Source: Bacilli bacterium
GTDB lineage: Bacteria; Bacillota_I; Bacilli_A; RF39; UBA660
Reading direction: 5' to 3'
DNA: 64,000 bases
Assembly (NCBI GenBank): GCA_017435465.1
Contig: JAFSEX010000005.1
Span: 223,982 to 287,981, forward strand
Part shown: piece by piece, positions 5,971 to 52,092 of the stretch
Layout of the letters: the number at the start of each line of letters is the position of its first letter
Numbering within the stretch: the first letter of the stretch is position 1
The notes under the pieces: generated by a model
What the model saw: the letters and a program-made list of their open reading frames with translations, nothing else
The model's database searches: none
Told to the model about the DNA's origin: nothing
Position numbers and translations under genes: made by a program

Positions 5971-6726
5971 ATGAGAGTAAATTATTTTTGTAGTGGTTTT
6001 GATGTCAATAATGCTTTTTGGCCAGAGTTGGCAGAAAGGTTTAAAAATGAAATGACCGATACGAAAAGTATTGTTTATATTCCAGGTAGTCCACAAAAGA
6101 TAGAAAAAGCAAAAACAAAATATGTTCCTGCATTTACAGAGCATTTTAGAAAAGCAGGAATTCAATTTGAAAGTTCTTATTTGATTTCACCTGAAATGGA
6201 TTCTTAGGAAGCTAAAGATTTAATTAATAATGCAAGTTTTGTCATGTTAATGGGTGGGGATCCTTTTGCCCAAAAAGAAATGTGTGAAAAATTAGGAATA
6301 TTAGAAAATTTAAAAAAATATAATGGAGTAATGCTAGGATTTAGTGCAGGTGCTATGTTAATGTCTAAAAATATAATAATCACACCTTGTAGTGAAGAAT
6401 ATCCGGATTTTCATATTGAACCAGGAATGAATTTATCAGAAATATCAATTTATCCACACAATAATTTTGGTGGAAATGAATATCCTGAAAAAGTTTGCGC
6501 TGGAGATGAAACCTACGATAGAAATGATTTAATTAAAGTGGCGCAAGAATATGGTGAATTTTATTTATTACAAGATCATTTAAATGAAACTGGGTTAACA
6601 AATGTTAGCTTAATAAGAACCTGTGGTTTAGAAATTGAGTTTATCACTCAAAATGATGGCAAAATTTTTAAAGCAACAAGTAATGGTATTGAGCTACTTA
6701 CAGATAACAAAAAATATACAAGATAA
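5971..6726 (+). pseudogene. Peptidase E-like (S51 family) gene interrupted by a single in-frame amber codon (TAG 6205-6207)
   Basis: ORFs 5971-6207 and 6244-6726 are in the same frame (offset 273 = 91 codons). The joined protein carries S51-like motifs (LMGGDP, GFSAGAM). Confidence 0.5.
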
Positions 6727-7816: not shown

Positions 7817-8710
7817 ATGGAAAAATCAAAAGTTTATTTTACAAAAAATATTAATTCAAATAGTCTTGTAGAAATTTATAATACATTAAATAAAGATTTA
7901 AATGGTAAAGTTGCTATTAAGATATCAACTGGAGAAAAAGGTAATAATAATTATTTGAATCCATTGCTTATAAAAGACTTAGTTCAAAGTTTAAATGGAA
8001 CTATAGTAGAATGTAATACAGCATATGCTGGCAAAAGAAATACTACTAAAGAACATTTAGAAACTGCTAAAGAACATGGATTTTTTGATATTGCGAATGT
8101 AGATATTATGGATTCTGAAGGTGATATTGAATTACCAATAAAAGGTGGAAAACATTTAAAAGTAAATTATGTTGGTAAAAATATTAAAAATTATGATTCA
8201 ATTTTAATATTATCACATTTTAAAGGACATCCTATGGGAGGCTTTGGAGGAGCACTAAAAAATATGTCAATAGGGATTGCTTCTTCAAAAGGAAAATGTT
8301 GGATACATAGTGCGGGTAAAGTAGATAATCCTAAGACAATATGGAAAAATACGGCACCACAAGATGTATTTTTAGAATGTATGGGAGAAGCTGACAAATC
8401 AGTTATAGATTATTTTAAAGATAATATTGCCTATATAAATGTTATAAACAATCTTTCAGTAGATTGTGATTGTGTAGCAACACCAGAAAAACCATGTATG
8501 CATGATATAGGAATTGCTGCATCATTAGATCCAGTTGCGTTAGATAAAGCATGTCTAGATTTAATATATAATTCTACTGATGAAGGTAGAGAACATTTTA
8601 TTAAACGTGTTGAAACTAAAAATGGTAAACATATAATTGATTATGCGGTTACACTTAAAATAGGTAATGATAATTATGAATTAATAAATATTGATAAATA
8701 TCAAGATTAA
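7817..8710 (+). CDS. DUF362-like domain protein (Fe-S associated, unknown function)
   Basis: SHFKGHPMGGFGGALKN and DCDC motifs resemble DUF362 proteins, which frequently neighbour ferredoxins. Confidence 0.45.
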   Translation: MEKSKVYFTKNINSNSLVEIYNTLNKDLNGKVAIKISTGEKGNNNYLNPLLIKDLVQSLNGTIVECNTAYAGKRNTTKEHLETAKEHGFFDIANVDIMDSEGDIELPIKGGKHLKVNYVGKNIKNYDSILILSHFKGHPMGGFGGALKNMSIGIASSKGKCWIHSAGKVDNPKTIWKNTAPQDVFLECMGEADKSVIDYFKDNIAYINVINNLSVDCDCVATPEKPCMHDIGIAASLDPVALDKACLDLIYNSTDEGREHFIKRVETKNGKHIIDYAVTLKIGNDNYELINIDKYQD

Positions 8711-15458: not shown

Positions 15459-16533
15459 TTAATTCTTTTATCTTTTCAACATTTTTAAAATTCAATTTAG
15501 CAACTTTATTAAGTTCATCAAATCCAAATTTTTTAACAAACTTAACACCAAATTCATCAACTAAATTAGATGCACCCTTAGGTAAAAACATATCATATTT
15601 TGCTCCTAATTTTTCTAATTCAATTAAGAATGTATATCTACTAATTAATGAACCACATGCAACTGCAAGATTTTTATCTTCAGCTTTAGTCATAAATTCA
15701 ATATCTCGAACAACATTTTCTTCATTTTTTAAATATTCATAGTATTTTCTTGGATTTACAAATTGATCCAAAATAATATAATCATATTCTAAAACATTGT
15801 TTTTAAGTTTATATAAAACCTCATTATGTAATAAAGCTTTAAAAGTATTCATATTAATTTCACTAGAATACATTGTATTGTATTCTTCATTAGTTAGAAT
15901 AGCACTTTCATATTTAATCTTTTTCATGATTTCAGGCACAATTTTTAAAATAGTTTCATCACTCATTTTTTTAGAATCTTTAACTCCTAAACTTTCTAGA
16001 AATGGAATATCTTCTTTAGTAACATAAGAAGCTGTTACAACAATAGGGCCAAAGAAATCTCCAGTACCAACTTCATCAGATCCTATTGAAGTAATATTAT
16101 AATAATCTTTTACAGTTTTTTTAGTATCAGTAATTTTCTTTTCTTTTCTACCCTTAATATATGTACATCTTGGATAATTACTGCAAGCGGTAAATTCTCC
16201 ATATTTTCCATTTCTAATAACTAAATTATGACCACATTCAGGACATATTTCACCAGTTTCAGTTGGTGGAACTTTTTTTTGTTCTTCAGTATTTTCAATA
16301 GGGTTTAAATGAGCTTCTCTTTGTTTCCAAAGCGATGCATCAATATCTGCACTTATACCTTGAAACATAGCTTTACCTGATTCATATAAAGTAATTACAG
16401 TATCAGCATCATCTGCTTGAAATATCGCATAAGGGGGAGTTTTTTCTCTTCTTTTAAATGCATATTCTCTTATCATCTCTTCTTTTATTTGATCACTAAC
16501 TTTTATTACAATTGTTTTTTGTTTTGATTTCAT
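15454..16533 (-). CDS. rnhC: Ribonuclease HIII with an inserted topoisomerase-type C4 zinc ribbon
   Basis: Catalytic motif IGSDEVGTGDFFGP (DESGKGDxxGP in RNase HIII) and an N-terminal TBP-like domain. Between them, CPECGHNLVIRNGKYGEFTACSNYPRCTY matches the zf-C4 topoisomerase ribbon pattern. Confidence 0.65.
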   Translation of the reverse strand: MKSKQKTIVIKVSDQIKEEMIREYAFKRREKTPPYAIFQADDADTVITLYESGKAMFQGISADIDASLWKQREAHLNPIENTEEQKKVPPTETGEICPECGHNLVIRNGKYGEFTACSNYPRCTYIKGRKEKKITDTKKTVKDYYNITSIGSDEVGTGDFFGPIVVTASYVTKEDIPFLESLGVKDSKKMSDETILKIVPEIMKKIKYESAILTNEEYNTMYSSEINMNTFKALLHNEVLYKLKNNVLEYDYIILDQFVNPRKYYEYLKNEENVVRDIEFMTKAEDKNLAVACGSLISRYTFLIELEKLGAKYDMFLPKGASNLVDEFGVKFVKKFGFDELNKVAKLNFKNVEKIKELN

Positions 16534-35481: not shown

Positions 35482-36864
35482 ATGGTTAAAAATAAAAAAA
35501 GTTTTTTTAACTCAGATTCAATTGGTGTACTACTTTTAGTATCATTGACTGTTTTTGCGGGTTACATGGGGTGTAGTCAAAGATTTTTAAGTGATATACA
35601 AGAAGAAAAAGTAACAACAAATAGTAAAAATTATAATAGAAGTAGTTATAGTGATTATGATTATGATAACGATGATGATGAATACTATAATAATTATGAA
35701 GATTATTATTGGAATTATAATGATTATGATGACTATTATTATGATGATACATATTCTTATAATCAAAATTACGATGATTATGGTTATAGTTATACAGGAT
35801 ATAAGAATTATGATGATGAAGGATATTATGATTATGATTATAACTATTATAGAGACACTAACAAACCATCAATTCGTATTAGTGCATTTAATGTAATTTA
35901 TCAATATGAAAGCTTTGATCCATGGGAAGGTATAAGTGCTAGTCATTCAAAATTTGGAGATGTAACAGATATAATTGAAATTGTTCATAATGATCTAGAT
36001 ATTAATATTCCTGGTCAATATTCAATTGTATACAAAGCATGTAATTATCCTGGTTCTATTTATTGTAGAACATTAACTAGACAAATTACAGTTAAACAAA
36101 AAGAAGATCCAAATTACTATAATACAAAAGCACCCGTATGGGAAAAAGTAAAGGACAAATCTTGTTCAGTAGGAAGTACAAGTTGTAGATCAAATAAAAT
36201 TGCAGAACCAACTGCAACTGATCCATACTCAAAAAGATCACTTGATGTAACTTTAATAGAAGGTAATGTTGATATTTACACACCGGGAACTTATGTTTTA
36301 GTATATTATGCAGAAACAGAAAATGGTATAAGTGGAACAATTACAAGAATAGTAACAATAGAAGATACAAATAACAATTATGACGACGACTATGATGATT
36401 ATTATGATAATGATTATCAACAAAGAAAATATATAGATAATCATTATTCAGAATACTATGATGATGGAACATATCGTGGTACATTAAATCCAGATTACAG
36501 TTATAATCAAATAAGTAAATATATTCAAGATTATAAATGGACTAATAAAGTTTATTATACTTATAAATGTAGTAACTTAAATGGTTATGGAATCAATGGA
36601 TGGGAATATATTTCAACAGATACATCTGATGACCACCCAACTTATGAATATAATATTGGAAATTTTAGTGGTACGTTAGAAAAAGATGATTTTTATTGTG
36701 TTCCAGGTCAAGGTTGTGAAGAAGATGTAAATAGACAACTTGGTACTTGTAGTAATCTTGGTGAAACAAAACAAATTACAAGAACTTGGGTAGGGATTTA
36801 TTCAGGATATGTATATACAAATGAAGAAGAAACATACTCTGGATATGTATATAGATATAGATAG
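35482..36864 (+). CDS. Secreted/lipoprotein-like protein with extreme Tyr/Asp/Asn low-complexity regions and two Ig-like (DUF5011-type) domains
   Basis: Signal peptide ending AGYMGCSQ. Runs such as YDYDNDDDEYYNNYEDYYWNYNDYDDYYYDD. Two segments ending ...PGQYSIVYKA.../...PGTYVLVYYAETENG...RIVTIED match the DUF5011 pattern. Confidence 0.5.
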   Translation: MVKNKKSFFNSDSIGVLLLVSLTVFAGYMGCSQRFLSDIQEEKVTTNSKNYNRSSYSDYDYDNDDDEYYNNYEDYYWNYNDYDDYYYDDTYSYNQNYDDYGYSYTGYKNYDDEGYYDYDYNYYRDTNKPSIRISAFNVIYQYESFDPWEGISASHSKFGDVTDIIEIVHNDLDINIPGQYSIVYKACNYPGSIYCRTLTRQITVKQKEDPNYYNTKAPVWEKVKDKSCSVGSTSCRSNKIAEPTATDPYSKRSLDVTLIEGNVDIYTPGTYVLVYYAETENGISGTITRIVTIEDTNNNYDDDYDDYYDNDYQQRKYIDNHYSEYYDDGTYRGTLNPDYSYNQISKYIQDYKWTNKVYYTYKCSNLNGYGINGWEYISTDTSDDHPTYEYNIGNFSGTLEKDDFYCVPGQGCEEDVNRQLGTCSNLGETKQITRTWVGIYSGYVYTNEEETYSGYVYRYR

Positions 36865-36939: not shown

Positions 36940-37020
36940 TAAAACTGTTGATAGAAAAATCTTGACTCGGGGGGGGAATGTTATATACTTATTATGATAA
37001 TTGTGGATAATTATCAAAAA
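36940..37020 (+). promoter_or_regulatory. Conserved upstream element copy 1: TTGACT, a G8 tract in the spacer, TATACT, and the palindrome GATAATTATC
   Basis: TTGACT 36962-36967, G8 36969-36976, TATACT 36984-36989 (16-nt spacer), palindrome 37006-37015. About 80% identical to 49054-49140. Confidence 0.5.
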
Positions 37021-38380: not shown

Positions 38381-40516
38381 ATGAAAAATAAAATAATAAA
38401 TATAGCAATAATTATATTATCAATTTTCTTTGTTAGTAGTACTGATGTTTTTGCATTAAATCCAGTTTCAGTATCAGTTCATGATATTGAAGCAGATACA
38501 TATGTTATTGGAACACACATGTTTGATACAAATAGAACATATTTATCAACTGAAGATATCATGTGGGCTGCAAGAACAATAGATACTGATAGTAAAGATG
38601 ACATGATAATCTATTATAAAGATTTTAATAATGAGTGGATTAATGGTAGAACAGGAGAAGAAATTACTGTTCCTTCAACATTTGAAATTGAAGAAATAAA
38701 TGGAAGCAAGGCAGATTCTGTTAGTATATTTTACATAGAAGATAATTCTAATTATTCAATAATTGATCAATATTTATATACAAAAAATGATTTAACAATT
38801 ATTCCAGACAGTGATAAAAATTATACAATTAATTTTAATGCATATAATTTTGAAAACAAAACATATGATTTTAATTTTGTATGTAAATCGGATAACGAAA
38901 CAAATCTTGATTTAGGTACTATTCCAACAACTATTGAAATACTTAATGGGGAATTTGCATTACCAATAACTGTTAGTCAAAATGCAAAAGAAGGATATTA
39001 TTATTGTGAAATGACTTTAGGTGATAATAAATATAATGATTTTGGTATTAACATAGGACAGTCTGAACATATTTTTGAAGCAGAAGCATTAGAAATATAT
39101 ACTAATGATGAAAATTATAATGAATTTGCTGAAACTTTTTATCCAAAAGAATACAATACATTTGAAGTAGAAGAAGAGTCATCTTGGAGTTATGATCAAT
39201 TATTCTTTTTCCTTAATCCATTTATTGATGAAGGCGTATATAATGTAGAAATATCAGCAACTAAAAATGGAAAATCAGTAGAATTAAAAGATGTTCCAAC
39301 AAATATTAATATTGACTATTCAAAAGTAAATGGATTTTCAATAGATTTTGTTGATAAAATTACTGAAGGTAACTATACAATTGAAATAACTATTGATAAT
39401 ATTACAGAATATTTTTATTTAAAAGTTAAAAAACCAGTTAAAGTAGAATTAGAAACGTTATATAATAAAACTGATGGCTACTATATTGAAAATGGTAACA
39501 TAATAACAAACGAAAAAAATAAAACTTATACTGCAACCTTCAATACAACTAATCTTTCTGATGGAACCTATAATATTAAAAATTATATTGAAGCAATGAG
39601 TGTTGGGTTATCACAATCATTAAAAAGTGATTATAAAGTAGAGGTTAAAGATAATAAATTTACATTTGATTTTGTAATACCTAAAACTCTACCAGAATGT
39701 GATAGTTATTATATTGATCTAAAATTAATGGATGAAAATAATAATGAAATTAGTGAATTTATAATAAATCCTTTTTCAATTAACGGTAACAAATCAACAG
39801 GATTAAAATTTACAAGTTCTGAAGAATGTGGAAATCCTTTTGGTACTGTGTGCTTATCTGGAAGAAATGAAACAACTGGTGGTGCAATAATAGAATTGAA
39901 TTTTGCAACTCAAAAATGGGTAAGTGGTTTTGAAATTTATAGTTCAGATACTGAAGACGGACAATATACATTACTTGCTGACATTAATGATGGGTTCTAT
40001 CATGCAGAATTAGAAAATGAACAATCATGGGGAAATATAGAAGTTGAGGTTCCATTACAAGGAACAAAATATTTCAAAGTTATTCCATACATATTAGATG
40101 ATAACGATAATAAAATCTATAAAGAAGAATCAAATATTATAGATTATACTGATGAAATATATTCTTGGATTGGATTTAAACGAAATCCATATGGAAGTGA
40201 TATAATTGTTTCATATGATAATGAACATAATGCGACAATAACTATTGAATCATCAATATCAAAGAATGATTATATTGATGGATATATTATTTCAGAATCA
40301 GAAGATAATGGTATTAGTGGAACGTTAATAAAAAAATATGAAATTGACAAAAATATTACTTTTAATGAATATAATATGTCTAAAGAACAAGTTCAAGTTA
40401 CAATTCCTAACGGTGAAACAAGATTTTATATAATAACACCTTATATAAATATTAATGGTGAAGAAACAATTTTAGATTCACCTTATAGTATTAGATATGA
40501 AAACATTAATCAATAA
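38381..40516 (+). CDS. Large secreted hypothetical protein (signal peptide; beta-rich)
   Basis: 711 aa with an N-terminal signal IINIAIIILSIFFVSSTDVFA. Sits 14 bp after the previous gene, so probably an operon. Confidence 0.5.
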   Translation: MKNKIINIAIIILSIFFVSSTDVFALNPVSVSVHDIEADTYVIGTHMFDTNRTYLSTEDIMWAARTIDTDSKDDMIIYYKDFNNEWINGRTGEEITVPSTFEIEEINGSKADSVSIFYIEDNSNYSIIDQYLYTKNDLTIIPDSDKNYTINFNAYNFENKTYDFNFVCKSDNETNLDLGTIPTTIEILNGEFALPITVSQNAKEGYYYCEMTLGDNKYNDFGINIGQSEHIFEAEALEIYTNDENYNEFAETFYPKEYNTFEVEEESSWSYDQLFFFLNPFIDEGVYNVEISATKNGKSVELKDVPTNINIDYSKVNGFSIDFVDKITEGNYTIEITIDNITEYFYLKVKKPVKVELETLYNKTDGYYIENGNIITNEKNKTYTATFNTTNLSDGTYNIKNYIEAMSVGLSQSLKSDYKVEVKDNKFTFDFVIPKTLPECDSYYIDLKLMDENNNEISEFIINPFSINGNKSTGLKFTSSEECGNPFGTVCLSGRNETTGGAIIELNFATQKWVSGFEIYSSDTEDGQYTLLADINDGFYHAELENEQSWGNIEVEVPLQGTKYFKVIPYILDDNDNKIYKEESNIIDYTDEIYSWIGFKRNPYGSDIIVSYDNEHNATITIESSISKNDYIDGYIISESEDNGISGTLIKKYEIDKNITFNEYNMSKEQVQVTIPNGETRFYIITPYININGEETILDSPYSIRYENINQ

Positions 40517-48374: not shown

Positions 48375-48839
48375 ATGAAAATAATAAATATAGCAAGTAA
48401 TAATTCAGTTTGGAGAGGCCAAGATTATTATAAAGAAAAGAAAATTAAAAAGTATAAAAAGATAAGTGATTATGAATATGAAGCTATTGCTTTAGGCAGT
48501 GATAAAAACAATTATAATGTTTTTCTAGATATAGAACATCCTAGAAAATCAAAATGTGATTGTTCTCACGCAAAAGACAAAAGAATAATATGTAAACATA
48601 TTGTTGCACTTTATTTTACAATATTTCCTAAAGAAGTTGATACTTTTCTAAAAGAAGTAGAAGAAGCACAAAATGAATATGAAGATTACAAAGGTAAACT
48701 ATATAATAAAACTTTAAAATATATTAATAAAATGTCTAAAAAAGAGTTAGAAGAATCTTTAGTTTATATATTAAATATCTCTCCAGATTGGTTTTATGAC
48801 AAATTTGTTAGAGAGTATGTTGGTTTTGATGTAGATTAA
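48375..48839 (+). CDS. SWIM zinc-finger domain protein
   Basis: CDCSHAKDKRIICKHIVALYF fits the SWIM pattern C-x-C-x(9)-C-x-H. Confidence 0.5.
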   Translation: MKIINIASNNSVWRGQDYYKEKKIKKYKKISDYEYEAIALGSDKNNYNVFLDIEHPRKSKCDCSHAKDKRIICKHIVALYFTIFPKEVDTFLKEVEEAQNEYEDYKGKLYNKTLKYINKMSKKELEESLVYILNISPDWFYDKFVREYVGFDVD

Positions 48840-49053
48840 AAAAGTTTTGCAATCATAAGTATGCAAAACTTTTTGTATGTTAAGATTATTATAGTTAATT
48901 AATCAATAATTTTTTCAAAATTAAATAATTCTGAATCAAAAAATTCTTTTAATGTTATATTAAATATCTTACATATTTTATAAATATTTGTTGAACTTGG
49001 ATTGTCTACTTTTACTTTATCACTACAGTTGTCTAATGTAAAGTATAACTCTA

Positions 49054-49145
49054 TTGACACCTGTTGAAAACTTTTTCTTGACTTGGGGGAATATTATATA
49101 CTAAACTTGAAAATTGTGGATAATTATTAATTAATTATCAAAAAA
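49054..49145 (+). promoter_or_regulatory. Conserved upstream element copy 2: TTGACT, G5 tract, TATACT (13-nt spacer), GATAATTATT
   Basis: TTGACT 49078-49083, G5 49085-49089, TATACT 49097-49102. Paralogous to 36940-37020; the only length difference is the G-tract. Confidence 0.5.
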
Positions 49146-49160
49146 GGAGTGAAAAAATTT

Positions 49161-50024
49161 ATGGAAAAGAAAAATACAGGGTTAATAGTTTTAGTTGTAG
49201 TTTTAAGTATTGCAATATTAGGACTTGGTGGATTTATTGTTTATGATAAGGTATTATTTAAAGATTCTAATATTGAAAATGTAGATAAAAATGAATCTTA
49301 TATGGAACAAAATAAAATTGTAAAAAAGACTGAAAAATTGATAAGTAACATTCCATTAATTCATAAATATGAAGAAAAAATCACTGATTTTAACGCTATT
49401 GATAATTATGATAAAATAACGCTTGCTGTTGATTATATAGCACGAAATGAAAATTCAAAAATTTATAATTATAGCGATAAAATAAGTGTAGAAAAAATTA
49501 ATAATACTTTAACAAAAATATTTAATGATAAAATTTCTTTTGATAATGAAAATATTATGTGTTGTTATTCTGATGAAGTTTTAGAACACTGTCATATAAC
49601 ATACGATGAACAAAATAACCAATATATTAGTGGTACAGGAGAACCACATGGATATTCAGAAACATATGCTTTTTATAATAAATTAATAAATTTTGAAAAA
49701 GTTAATAATACTTATGAATTGACTTATATTTATTTGTTTGATGAAATAGGGGATAGTCCTAGACCTATAGGGTCAGAGTTATATACTACATATGTAAACA
49801 AAAATAACCCATATATTGAATTTTCACAAAGTGATTATGATAAAATGTATGATATATATAATAAAACAGGTAAAACTGAAATAGAACAAATAAAAGAAGT
49901 AGTTGCAGAAAAAATAGAAAATCTTGATAATTATAATGAATTCCCAAAATATAAATATATAGTAGAATTGGATAATAACGATAATCCAAAACTAGTAGGA
50001 TATGAATTTATAGATGTTAAATAA
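49161..50024 (+). CDS. Hypothetical membrane-anchored secreted protein
   Basis: N-terminal TM LIVLVVVLSIAILGLGGFIVY. Start set at the ATG 9 nt after the AGGAGTG RBS; the ORF-track start is GTG at 49149. Confidence 0.5.
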   Translation: MEKKNTGLIVLVVVLSIAILGLGGFIVYDKVLFKDSNIENVDKNESYMEQNKIVKKTEKLISNIPLIHKYEEKITDFNAIDNYDKITLAVDYIARNENSKIYNYSDKISVEKINNTLTKIFNDKISFDNENIMCCYSDEVLEHCHITYDEQNNQYISGTGEPHGYSETYAFYNKLINFEKVNNTYELTYIYLFDEIGDSPRPIGSELYTTYVNKNNPYIEFSQSDYDKMYDIYNKTGKTEIEQIKEVVAEKIENLDNYNEFPKYKYIVELDNNDNPKLVGYEFIDVK

Positions 50025-50125
50025 CATATTAGTAAAAGTGTTTTTTCGACACTTTTTTTAATTTAAAACAAATTTTTATAAATTTTATGTTATACTAGTA
50101 TTACATAATAGGAGGTATACTTTTA

Positions 50126-51409
50126 ATGGATGAGTTTGTAGAGGGTAAAAATTATAAATTAAGTATCATACATCAAGACCACTATGGTAGAGGTATCGCA
50201 AAGTTTAATAGATATCCAATCTTTATACCATATACATTACCGGGAGAATTAATAGAAGTTAAAATAACAAAATCAAAGAAAAACTTTGCGGAAGGACTAC
50301 CAGAAAAATTAATAACAGTTTCTAATAATAGAGTTAAAATTCCATGTGAAAATTTTTATGTTTGTGGTGGTTGTGATATTATGCATCAAAAATATGAAGA
50401 TGGACTTAAAATGAAAAAAAGAAATTTATTAGAAATTTTATATAAATTTGGTAAGATTGATGTGACAAAACTAAAAATAAATAATGTTGTTAAGTGTGAT
50501 GATATTTTTAATTATAGAAATAAAGTAACGTTTCATGTTAAAGATAATAAAATTGGTTTTTATAAAAATGAAACCAATGAATTAATTAATATTGATGAAT
50601 GTAAAATAATTAATGATAAATTTAATAAAATTTTAAAATATATAAAAAAACATTTATCTGATAGCGGAATAACTGAAATCGTTATGAGATATGGTACATA
50701 TACTGATGAATTAATGATTATATTTAAATCTAATAAAAATATTGATGAACAATTTATTAGAAATTTAGTTAAATTAAATAAGAGTGTTAAAAGTATTTAT
50801 TTACTTAAAAATTCAAAATATAAATTAATTTATGGGGAAAAATATATTCATGAAAATTTGTTAGATAAAACATTTAGAATTAGTCCTGATTCATTTTTTC
50901 AAGTTAATACTAAACAAGCGGAGAAAATGTTTTCTAAAGTTTTAAAATATATTAATAGTGATGATAAAAATATTTTAGATTTATATTGTGGAATAGGTGT
51001 AATTAGTTTAATTATTAATAATAGTAGAAAAAATATTATTGGGGTTGATATAGTTAAAAATGCGATAGAAGATGCGAATGTGAATAAAGTTTTGAATAAT
51101 GCTTCTAAAGTGGAATTTGTCTGTGAAAATGTATCAAATATATTGCCAGTAATAAAAAGGGCAAAAAAAGATTTAGATGTTATAATTTTAGATCCACCAA
51201 GAACTGGTATTGATAAAAATAGTGTTAATATAATCAATGAATTATTGCCAAAAAAATTGATATATATTTCATGTAATCCAGTTACTTTAGCACGTGATTT
51301 AAAAACATTAAAAGAAAATTATAATGTTGAAGAAATAACTCCGTATGATATGTTTCCTATAACTCATCATATTGAAACTGTTACTTTATTAACTATAAAG
51401 GAGAATTAA
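50126..51409 (+). CDS. rlmD: 23S rRNA (uracil-C5)-methyltransferase, RumA/RlmD family
   Basis: TRAM domain N-terminus, Fe-S cysteines (CENFYVCGGCDIMH), SAM-MTase DLYCGIG and ILDPPRTG motifs. Confidence 0.8.
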   Translation: MDEFVEGKNYKLSIIHQDHYGRGIAKFNRYPIFIPYTLPGELIEVKITKSKKNFAEGLPEKLITVSNNRVKIPCENFYVCGGCDIMHQKYEDGLKMKKRNLLEILYKFGKIDVTKLKINNVVKCDDIFNYRNKVTFHVKDNKIGFYKNETNELINIDECKIINDKFNKILKYIKKHLSDSGITEIVMRYGTYTDELMIIFKSNKNIDEQFIRNLVKLNKSVKSIYLLKNSKYKLIYGEKYIHENLLDKTFRISPDSFFQVNTKQAEKMFSKVLKYINSDDKNILDLYCGIGVISLIINNSRKNIIGVDIVKNAIEDANVNKVLNNASKVEFVCENVSNILPVIKRAKKDLDVIILDPPRTGIDKNSVNIINELLPKKLIYISCNPVTLARDLKTLKENYNVEEITPYDMFPITHHIETVTLLTIKEN

Positions 51410-52092
51410 TGGAAGAATTAGTAAATATTGAATTAAAGAAATATTTAAAGAATAATATACTAAAAGAATATGAACTTAATGATTCAGGTCATAATATAGA
51501 TCATATAAATTTTGTTTTAGAACGTGCATATGAACTAAGCAAAATATATAATATTAATTATGACATGTTATATACTATTGTTTGTTTCCATGACATAGCA
51601 TGTCATATAAATAGAGAAGAACATGAAATTTTATCTGCTAAAAGATTATATAATGATGAATTTTTAAATAAATATTTCAATGAAAAAGATATGTTAATAA
51701 TGAAAGAAGCGGTAGAAGACCATAGAGCATCATTAGAATATATTCCAAGAAATATATATGGAAAAATATTATCATCAGCTGATAGAAAAATTGGTGTTGA
51801 TAATTATTTGCATGCGTCTATAGGATTTAGTATGAAAAAAAATCCTGAAAAAACTTTTGAAGAATTAATTGAAGATTCATATCAATTTGCTATAAAAAAG
51901 TTTGGAAAAGATGGATATGCAGTAAAAAAGATGTATGTTAAAGATAAAAAATATGAAGAATTTTTAAAAGAAATTCAATATTTAATCGATAATAAAAAGG
52001 AATTTATTAAAAAAGCACAAAGTGTAATAAATAAAATAATAAACTTTATTGGTAATATAATATTTTTATGTTATTATATTAATGGAGGGTGA
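51409..52092 (+). CDS. HD-domain phosphohydrolase
   Basis: HNIDHINFVLERA...CFHDIACH provide the H...HD metal-binding motif. 227 aa. Confidence 0.55.
   Translation: MEELVNIELKKYLKNNILKEYELNDSGHNIDHINFVLERAYELSKIYNINYDMLYTIVCFHDIACHINREEHEILSAKRLYNDEFLNKYFNEKDMLIMKEAVEDHRASLEYIPRNIYGKILSSADRKIGVDNYLHASIGFSMKKNPEKTFEELIEDSYQFAIKKFGKDGYAVKKMYVKDKKYEEFLKEIQYLIDNKKEFIKKAQSVINKIINFIGNIIFLCYYINGG

Follow-up and report, generated by a model that had tools for sequence, protein, structure and literature searches.

The element that lies upstream of the gene at 49161-50024 is best explained as one member ('copy 2') of a family of promoters of the porA/vlp type, in which a homopolymer tract occupies the spacer between the -35 and -10 hexamers. 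Judging from the sequence comparisons set out below, we put the probability of this reading, with copy 2 as a contracted, low-expression and slowly-reverting allele, at roughly 0.55. The cassette would then be a lineage-restricted, sigma-A-like promoter of the housekeeping type, whose spacer is for the most part an uninterrupted run of G, the length of which sets that of the spacer (13-16 nt across the copies); slipped-strand mispairing would lengthen or shorten the run on an evolutionary timescale—and, for the copies with G7-G8, probably within populations too—and would in this way tune, or switch, how strongly the genes for surface-anchored proteins are transcribed. In copy 2 (49085-49089), contraction of the run to G5 would have left a mere 13 nt between TTGACT and TATACT, which are then no longer in register.

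The copy-2 element and its transcription unit

Throughout, 'the window' denotes the whole 64-kb stretch of DNA that was analysed, which has a G+C content of 24.5%. The proteins it encodes are identical to those of an NCBI MAG ('Bacilli bacterium'; locus tags IJO32_), and an IleS search, which brought up a 94%-identical protein (P0228), gave no relative with a name. A sequence-only reading of this region had proposed a second poly-G promoter with a tract of five G; the element is indeed present, copy 2 running TTGACT-T-G5-AATATTA-TATACT at 49078-49102 (spacer, 13 nt), with the G run sitting, as had been suggested, inside the spacer between the two hexamers. Reading along the forward strand, the component parts of the unit are as follows.

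48839-48877, + strand: terminator-like hairpin 3' of the upstream SWIM-domain gene (RNA fold -13 kcal/mol, z -4.2, then a U run)
49061-49076, + strand: box A, CTGTTGAAAACTTTTT, the upstream conserved part; TGTTGATAGAAAAAT in other copies (alignments)
49078-49083, + strand: putative -35 hexamer, TTGACT (sequence)
49084, + strand: single T between the -35 and the G tract (sequence)
49085-49089, + strand: pure G5 tract in the putative promoter spacer; homologous tracts are G8, G8, G7, G8, G7 and G6
49090-49096, + strand: AATATTA, between G5 and the -10 of copy 2 (sequence)
49097-49102, + strand: putative -10 hexamer, TATACT, 13 nt from the -35 (sequence)
49102-49107, + strand: weak alternative -10-like hexamer, TAAACT, 18 nt from the same -35 (promoter scan, 9/12 matches)
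49114-49144, + strand: box B and dyad, TTGTGGATAATTA-N5-TAATTATCAAAAA (repeat search, alignments)
49144-49149, + strand: Shine-Dalgarno sequence AAGGAG, 11 nt before the ATG (sequence)
49161-50024, + strand: gene for a 287-aa, N-terminally anchored protein of the MEKKNTGLIVL... anchor family (ORF; ATG at 49161)
50034-50059, + strand: terminator-like hairpin and T run at the 3' end of the copy-2 unit (RNA fold -9.3 kcal/mol, z -4.3)

The first of the two hairpins, a perfect 12-nt inverted repeat (arms 48840-51 / 48862-73), insulates the copy-2 unit against read-through from the SWIM-domain gene; with such hairpins on both sides of it, the gene is monocistronic and appears to depend upon its own promoter. 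A promoter scan of the region upstream of the gene returned no match of standard spacing except that which pairs the same -35 with the weak TAAACT at 18 nt, a grade of match that is common in the AT-rich DNA found here (23 found against 18.3 expected). The leader RNA of copy 2 has no significant structure (z -1.46) and, over the window, Rfam identifies just one T-box and one tRNA, with nothing at the promoter element. Readings of the element as a sigma-H, sigma-54, ECF or extended -10 promoter were tried and rejected; none gave a fit when compared, by eye, with the respective consensus sequences.

By itself the G5 tract is ordinary: the window contains three runs of G5 (the others being at 16433 and 27019) and two of C5. 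What lies beyond chance in copy 2 is the position of the tract, homologous to that of the G8 of a conserved element.

A 53-aa ORF on the minus strand (48899-49060) adjoins the element; it weakly matches the C-terminal third alone of Cro/C1-type HTH domains (HTH_26, E=0.02; HTH_3, E=0.07), and is possibly what is left of an XRE-family gene that was cut short when the cassette arrived. In none of L028, L030 and L049, where the copy-2 gene has orthologues, is synteny with the window kept. Further downstream, several small indels (~51985-52035) set the 3' end of the 227-aa gene at 51409-52092 apart from its counterpart in the ENA/Logan assemblies, where the product is called at 208 aa; those assemblies are otherwise 100% identical to the window, and this is either an AT-rich, indel-prone spot or a difference of assembly.

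Homology between copy 2 and copy 1

The conserved element just mentioned lies some way upstream in the window.

36945-37014, + strand: copy 1 element, TTGACT-C-G8-AATGTTA-TATACT, preceding the genes for an Flg_new-repeat protein and a 711-aa protein

Here TTGACT (36962-36967) is followed by a single C, by G8 (GGGGGGGG; 36969-36976), by AATGTTA and then by TATACT (36984-36989), giving a spacer of 16 nt; this G8 is the longest run of either G or C in the 64 kb, with no other exceeding 5. The cores of the two copies (36945-37014 and 49061-49127, from CTGTTGA to GGATAATTAT) are identical at 53/67 positions, or 79%, and at 45/52 from the -35 onward; the sole gap between them, of 3 nt, falls within the G run. 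Two occurrences of the pattern TTGACTNGGGGG were counted in the 64 kb (0.10 expected), and an nhmmer profile search of the window detected no copy beyond copies 1 and 2. On these alignments copy 2 is a true paralogue of copy 1, not a chance resemblance.

The genes downstream of copy 1 encode an Flg_new/internalin-like repeat protein and the 711-aa protein, which has homologues with dockerins. For this second gene of the operon (38381-40516), homologues of 33-38% identity often carry both dockerin and Flg_new domains; the window protein itself produced no dockerin match. These homologues hint that related gut Bacillota may build surface assemblies of the cellulosome type. Immediately 5' of copy 1, a 460-aa protein (35482-36864) combines long, Tyr/Asp/Asn-rich stretches of low complexity with a bacterial surface Ig-like domain, and may be a further surface protein adjoining the Flg_new operon.

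Relatives of the element in three species

Five extra copies were reached via homologues of the 287-aa protein, and thence their contigs, all from gut Bacilli of 23-24% GC; together with copies 1 and 2 (c1 and c2, below) they make up a set of seven copies from three species.

c1, species A, window 36962-36989: TTGACT-C-G8-AATGTTA-TATACT, spacer 16 nt
c2, species A, window 49078-49102: TTGACT-T-G5-AATATTA-TATACT, spacer 13 nt
c3, species A, L006, before the paralogue IJO32_05680: TTGATT-C-G8-AATATTA-TATAAT, spacer 16 nt
50a, species B, L050: TTGATT-C-G7-AATGTTG-TATAAT, spacer 15 nt
50b, species B, L050: TTGATT-C-G8-AATATTG-TATAAT, spacer 16 nt
28a, species C, L028, before a 47%-identical orthologue of the copy-2 gene: CTGACC-A-G7-ATAATTTT-TATAAT, spacer 16 nt
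28b, species C, L028: TCGACT-C-G6-TAAATGA-TATATT, spacer 14 nt

The -35 takes the form TTGAyT, CTGACC or TCGACT, and the spacers range from 13 to 16 nt, none being longer than 16; in 28a, G7 together with one extra base keeps the spacing at 16 nt. Tract lengths (8, 5, 8, 7, 8, 7 and 6, in the order listed) differ between homologous loci with conserved flanks. Across the DUF1016 locus, L006 and species B share 79% nucleotide identity, making 50a the positional orthologue of c3, and this orthologous pair differs by one G (G8 in species A, G7 in species B). In a distant orthologue (L049; 32% GC) the equivalent place is occupied by TTGACC-17-TATACT, where the -10 is extended by TGTGA and the G run is missing; an arrangement that supports our assignment of the hexamers, and shows the G run to be a lineage-specific addition. 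Genome, metagenome and viral contig collections were also scanned with the exact pattern TTGANTNGGGGN{0,12}GAATNTTATATA (the viral contigs with a box-A pattern in addition); these scans returned chance matches alone, in unrelated phyla, indicating that the element is lineage-restricted.

An AT-rich hairpin (TTTACA...TGTAAAG, then a T run) is found ~20 nt upstream of box A in five of the seven cassettes (L006 ~2900-2925; L028 ~2358-2385 and ~6228-6255; L050 ~6675-6700 and ~8670-8695), from which it would appear that the duplicated unit is longer than the promoter itself.

Might the resemblance have arisen by chance, or the G run be an artefact of assembly or sequencing? AT-rich intergenic DNA does yield many promoter-like matches, and runs of G5 do arise by chance; however, a profile built without copy 2 recovers copy 2 with E=5.4e-7, one built from the copies outside the window alone recovers both copy 1 (1.8e-11) and copy 2 (0.003), the same sequence is present in independent ENA, NCBI and Logan assemblies, and the element is conserved across three species. 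This explanation is effectively refuted.

A different account, which we consider doubtful, would have the length differences reflect the fixed divergence of paralogues in the absence of any switching: the G run would be a conserved feature of the spacer (for reasons of DNA shape, or contact with a factor) subject to rare, ordinary indels, with copy 2 as a weaker constitutive promoter, working perhaps via TAAACT at 18 nt. The availability of that alternative -10 is in its favour. It sits poorly, however, with tract lengths that vary among the seven copies when the G positions are without interruption (49/49) and the flanks diverge by 15-30%, with the concentration of indels in the tract, and with genomes otherwise devoid of G/C runs of at least 6; in ~105 kb from these species, 6/6 such runs are inside the spacer of an element. 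No factor or sigma, moreover, is known to recognise a G run of this kind, which also counts against it. We favour slippage within the tract as the probable cause of the length differences, as expected of a homopolymer-spacer promoter family; also in favour of a switch is the fact that the downstream genes, those behind copy 1 and those of the MEKKN-anchor family, code for surface proteins.

Spacer norm and expected promoter strength

Hexamer pairs with at least 11/12 matches number 11 at a spacer of 16 nt and 6 at 17 nt in the window, against 0-4 of the same grade at each other spacer from 10 to 24 nt, save for 7 at 24 nt; the tRNA promoter in L007 reads TTGACA-17-TATAAT. Taken together, the clustering of pairs and the tRNA promoter indicate that the organism uses canonical -35/-10 promoters with a modal spacer of 16 nt. 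The 13-nt spacer of copy 2 is outside the norm for this genome. It had been calculated previously that G5 leaves the hexamers 13 nt apart, and that a gain of three or four G would be needed; the arithmetic is right, such a gain restoring 16-17 nt, and it is at 16 and 17 nt that strong pairs concentrate.

For sigma-70/sigma-A promoters, a spacer as short as 13 nt should make a promoter very weak, and by the same analysis that of copy 2 should be very weak too. In 1995, van der Ende is said to have found porA expression abolished by the loss of two G's. Situated between hairpins and apparently reliant on a promoter with a 13-nt spacer, the copy-2 gene most likely yields little or no transcript; as the short-tract allele, copy 2 makes its gene a candidate for silence in this strain. 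Saying this, TAAACT at 18 nt could, by its sequence, sustain some transcription, and the intactness of the gene argues for its expression at some times; both speak against a strictly 'OFF' state.

Tract length within loci and the prospect of slippage

Tract length is constant among the assemblies of each locus compared (G5 for copy 2 in L001-L003, G8 for copy 1 in L004-L005 and G7 for 28a in L028-L029), a comparison that is weak as a test for polymorphism because the assemblies—99.5-100% identical to the window or to one another, and each giving the majority tract length only—are of nearly the same strain. Identical lengths in every assembly of a locus are nonetheless what fixed divergence of paralogues would lead one to expect, and the intact state of the copy-2 gene, along with the shortness of G5-G8 tracts in comparison with classic phase-variable ones, likewise favours that account.

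The length at which G/C tracts become prone to slippage is commonly given as 6-7 or more: copy 2 (G5) falls below this, and copies 1, c3, 50a, 50b, 28a and 28b (G6-G8) attain it. A cut-off of 6 has been applied to phase-variable G/C homopolymers (PMC5084427), and with G5 beneath it ready reversion by the addition of three or four G is unlikely. The proposal that the gene stays OFF until slippage adds 3-4 G remains plausible in its direction but overstates reversibility. Within the homopolymer-spacer family that we favour, copy 2 would best be viewed as a contracted allele in a low, 'near-locked' state, rather than as an OFF phase that reverses readily: five G are few for slippage to be efficient, and it would take three to four insertions to restore the spacing.

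The Logan assembly of SRR12529390 is broken within the copy-2 element, with L043 running to 49082 and L003 beginning at 49067; the break is located 3 nt before the G run, and the 16-nt overlap is unlike a simple length-variant bubble. A gap in coverage, trouble in sequencing through the G run, or heterogeneity could each account for it.

Box B, the dyad and a DnaA-box reading

Below the -10, GTGGATAA is positioned exactly 13 nt downstream in 6/7 copies. On the minus strand of both copy 2 (49115-49123) and copy 1 (37002-37010) there is a perfect DnaA-box 9-mer, TTATCCACA, that forms the left arm of the dyad found just after the -10, and the window as a whole contains five such 9-mers against 0.9 expected. 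These features might be taken to mean that the main control is exerted by a DNA-binding protein (DnaA, or some repressor) acting at the candidate TGTGGATAA box and dyad, with copies 1 and 2 making up a true regulon and the G run being secondary; an interpretation we judge improbable. The other three perfect boxes of the window are inside ORFs, and matches to the DnaA box in the other copies are of 7-8/9. The dyad half-sites, which abut in copy 1, are 11 nt (~one helical turn) further apart in copy 2. Furthermore, the other copies have AGTGGATAA/G at this point, as the spacer between ribosome site and ATG: in our alignment A4 the segment reads AAGGAGTGGATAAyTATTATG, that is, the ribosome site plus the spacer to the start codon, so that the fixed distance of 13 nt follows from common descent. 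In copies 1 and 2 alike, AATTGTGGATAA is a derived form, and the leader is longer and has acquired a new ribosome site. The operator/DnaA reading of box B was downgraded on these grounds, the box being the ancestral segment between ribosome site and ATG.

The two copies had been thought to define a small regulon of exported proteins. That the products are anchored or exported holds good; the regulon is unproven, with the shared box explained by common descent, and any regulatory role for box B is speculative.

The copy-2 protein and the MEKKN-anchor family

The copy-2 ORF (49161-50024) encodes 287 aa plus a stop, as opposed to the 288-aa membrane-anchored protein described from the letters; the anchor itself is upheld by a confident AlphaFold model (pLDDT 85.7; 22 homologues), in which a helix (residues 6-32) is connected through a disordered linker to a folded alpha+beta domain. 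Going by this model the product is membrane-anchored, and the gene looks intact. The protein belongs to no Pfam or NCBIfam family, and a search of its model against PDB folds gave nothing significant (best E-value 0.1, to NTF2/VirB8-like cones). Its N-terminus, MEKKNTGLIVLVVVLSIAILGLGGFIVYDKVLF, has no cysteine and is thus not that of a lipobox lipoprotein.

Genes for MEKKNxGLI... anchors are found behind 6/7 cassettes. Identity over their first 99 coding nucleotides is 89% among the species-A paralogues and reaches 100% for the pair 50a/50b, and the C-terminal parts of the proteins are unrelated; the genes are, in other words, paralogues with a common promoter and 5' coding region but divergent mature parts, in the manner of a vlp-like family. 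In five more distant members of the anchor family (P0007, P0019, P0022, P0062 and P0100) the promoter is of the ordinary kind, and the G run is absent.

The family is a widespread one of small proteins, with 161 representatives retrieved by phmmer; its N-terminal anchor (MEKKNTGLIVLVxxLSxxVxGLGGFIVYDKVL) is nearly invariant and is joined to unrelated C-terminal domains (sites: window 49161-49260; L006 3001-; L007 3001-; L050 6778- and 8773-; L028 6325-). This conservation of the N-terminus, in nucleotides as well as residues, would be in keeping with a dedicated signal for sorting, with gene conversion, or with the two together. Two of the cassettes precede very short, anchor-only ORFs of 72 and 87 aa (L028 6325-6987; L050 6778-8208), each with a separate ORF after it (124 aa and 379 aa); such pairs may have arisen by the splitting of a gene, or the short ORFs may encode small anchored peptides.

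Comparison with known systems

That a homopolymer tract in a promoter spacer can act as a switch is well established: references 24 and 32 of PMC5084427 document it for porA and opc, and references given in PMC11868660 for vlp. In the porA (poly-G; van der Ende 1995) and opc (poly-C; Sarkari 1994) genes of Neisseria meningitidis, a G/C run lies, as it does here, between the -35 and the -10; tract length sets the spacer and hence the level of surface protein, shorter tracts resulting in little or no expression. Our element differs in its host (an uncultured gut Bacilli bacterium of Gram-positive type and 24% GC, rather than a proteobacterial pathogen), in its tracts (G5-G8, compared with ~9-14) and in being a multi-copy cassette, for which switching and its effect on expression are predicted.

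The vlp genes of Mycoplasma hyorhinis (Rosengarten & Wise 1990/1991, as referenced in PMC11868660) constitute, like those described here, a surface-protein family in which each gene has its own conserved, homopolymer-spacer promoter. Both families also have a conserved 5' coding region for a membrane-targeting N-terminus, coupled to divergent C-terminal parts, and both occur in low-GC, Bacillota-related lineages. They differ in the base of the tract (G here, A in vlp), in the anchor (here of an uncleaved transmembrane type without a lipobox cysteine) and in arrangement, our genes being dispersed, with the exception of the two copies in L050, whereas those of vlp are clustered. The poly-A spacer mechanism of vlp is reportedly the subject of work by Yogev in 1991 and by Citti & Wise in 1995. 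MurT/GatD, SpoVA and, next to a sigma-70-family gene that may be sigma-F, a STAS gene are all present on contigs of the related species. This makes it probable that the hosts, unlike Mycoplasma hyorhinis, have a wall and form spores.

In Bordetella pertussis fim2/fim3 (poly-C), in other promoters with homopolymeric tracts (PMC1891110) and in Neisseria nspA (poly-A; PMC6389960), a homopolymer in the promoter region modulates transcription of a surface component, and strains differ in tract length; the position of the tract relative to activator sites is different from that seen here, and those cases have experimental backing, ours being predicted from sequence. The kind of switch is well known; its proposed presence in this uncultured gut bacterium is new.

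A broader reading, offered tentatively, is of a vlp-like system operating in three uncultured, probably spore-forming gut Bacilli of 23-24% GC, in which portable cassettes, homogenised by gene conversion, would undergo independent G-run switching to produce combinatorial surface variation, with copy 2 as a 'near-locked' OFF allele. Each portable unit would comprise the AT-rich hairpin, box A, -35, G run, -10, ribosome site and the start of the anchor coding sequence, placed before many unrelated surface domains.

Multi-locus, repeat-driven phase variation is known almost solely from host-adapted pathogens, and whether this represents a real restriction or a bias of the databases was posed as an open question in a 2025 review (PMC11868660). 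If our interpretation is true, the G-run cassette would bring within the range of this phenomenon commensal Bacillota of the livestock gut that are low in GC and possess a wall; it would also provide a simple genomic marker for use with metagenomes, as at 24% GC essentially every G run of at least 6 would mark such a locus. Proteins encoded by the window recur in gut metagenome assemblies (ENA, Logan).
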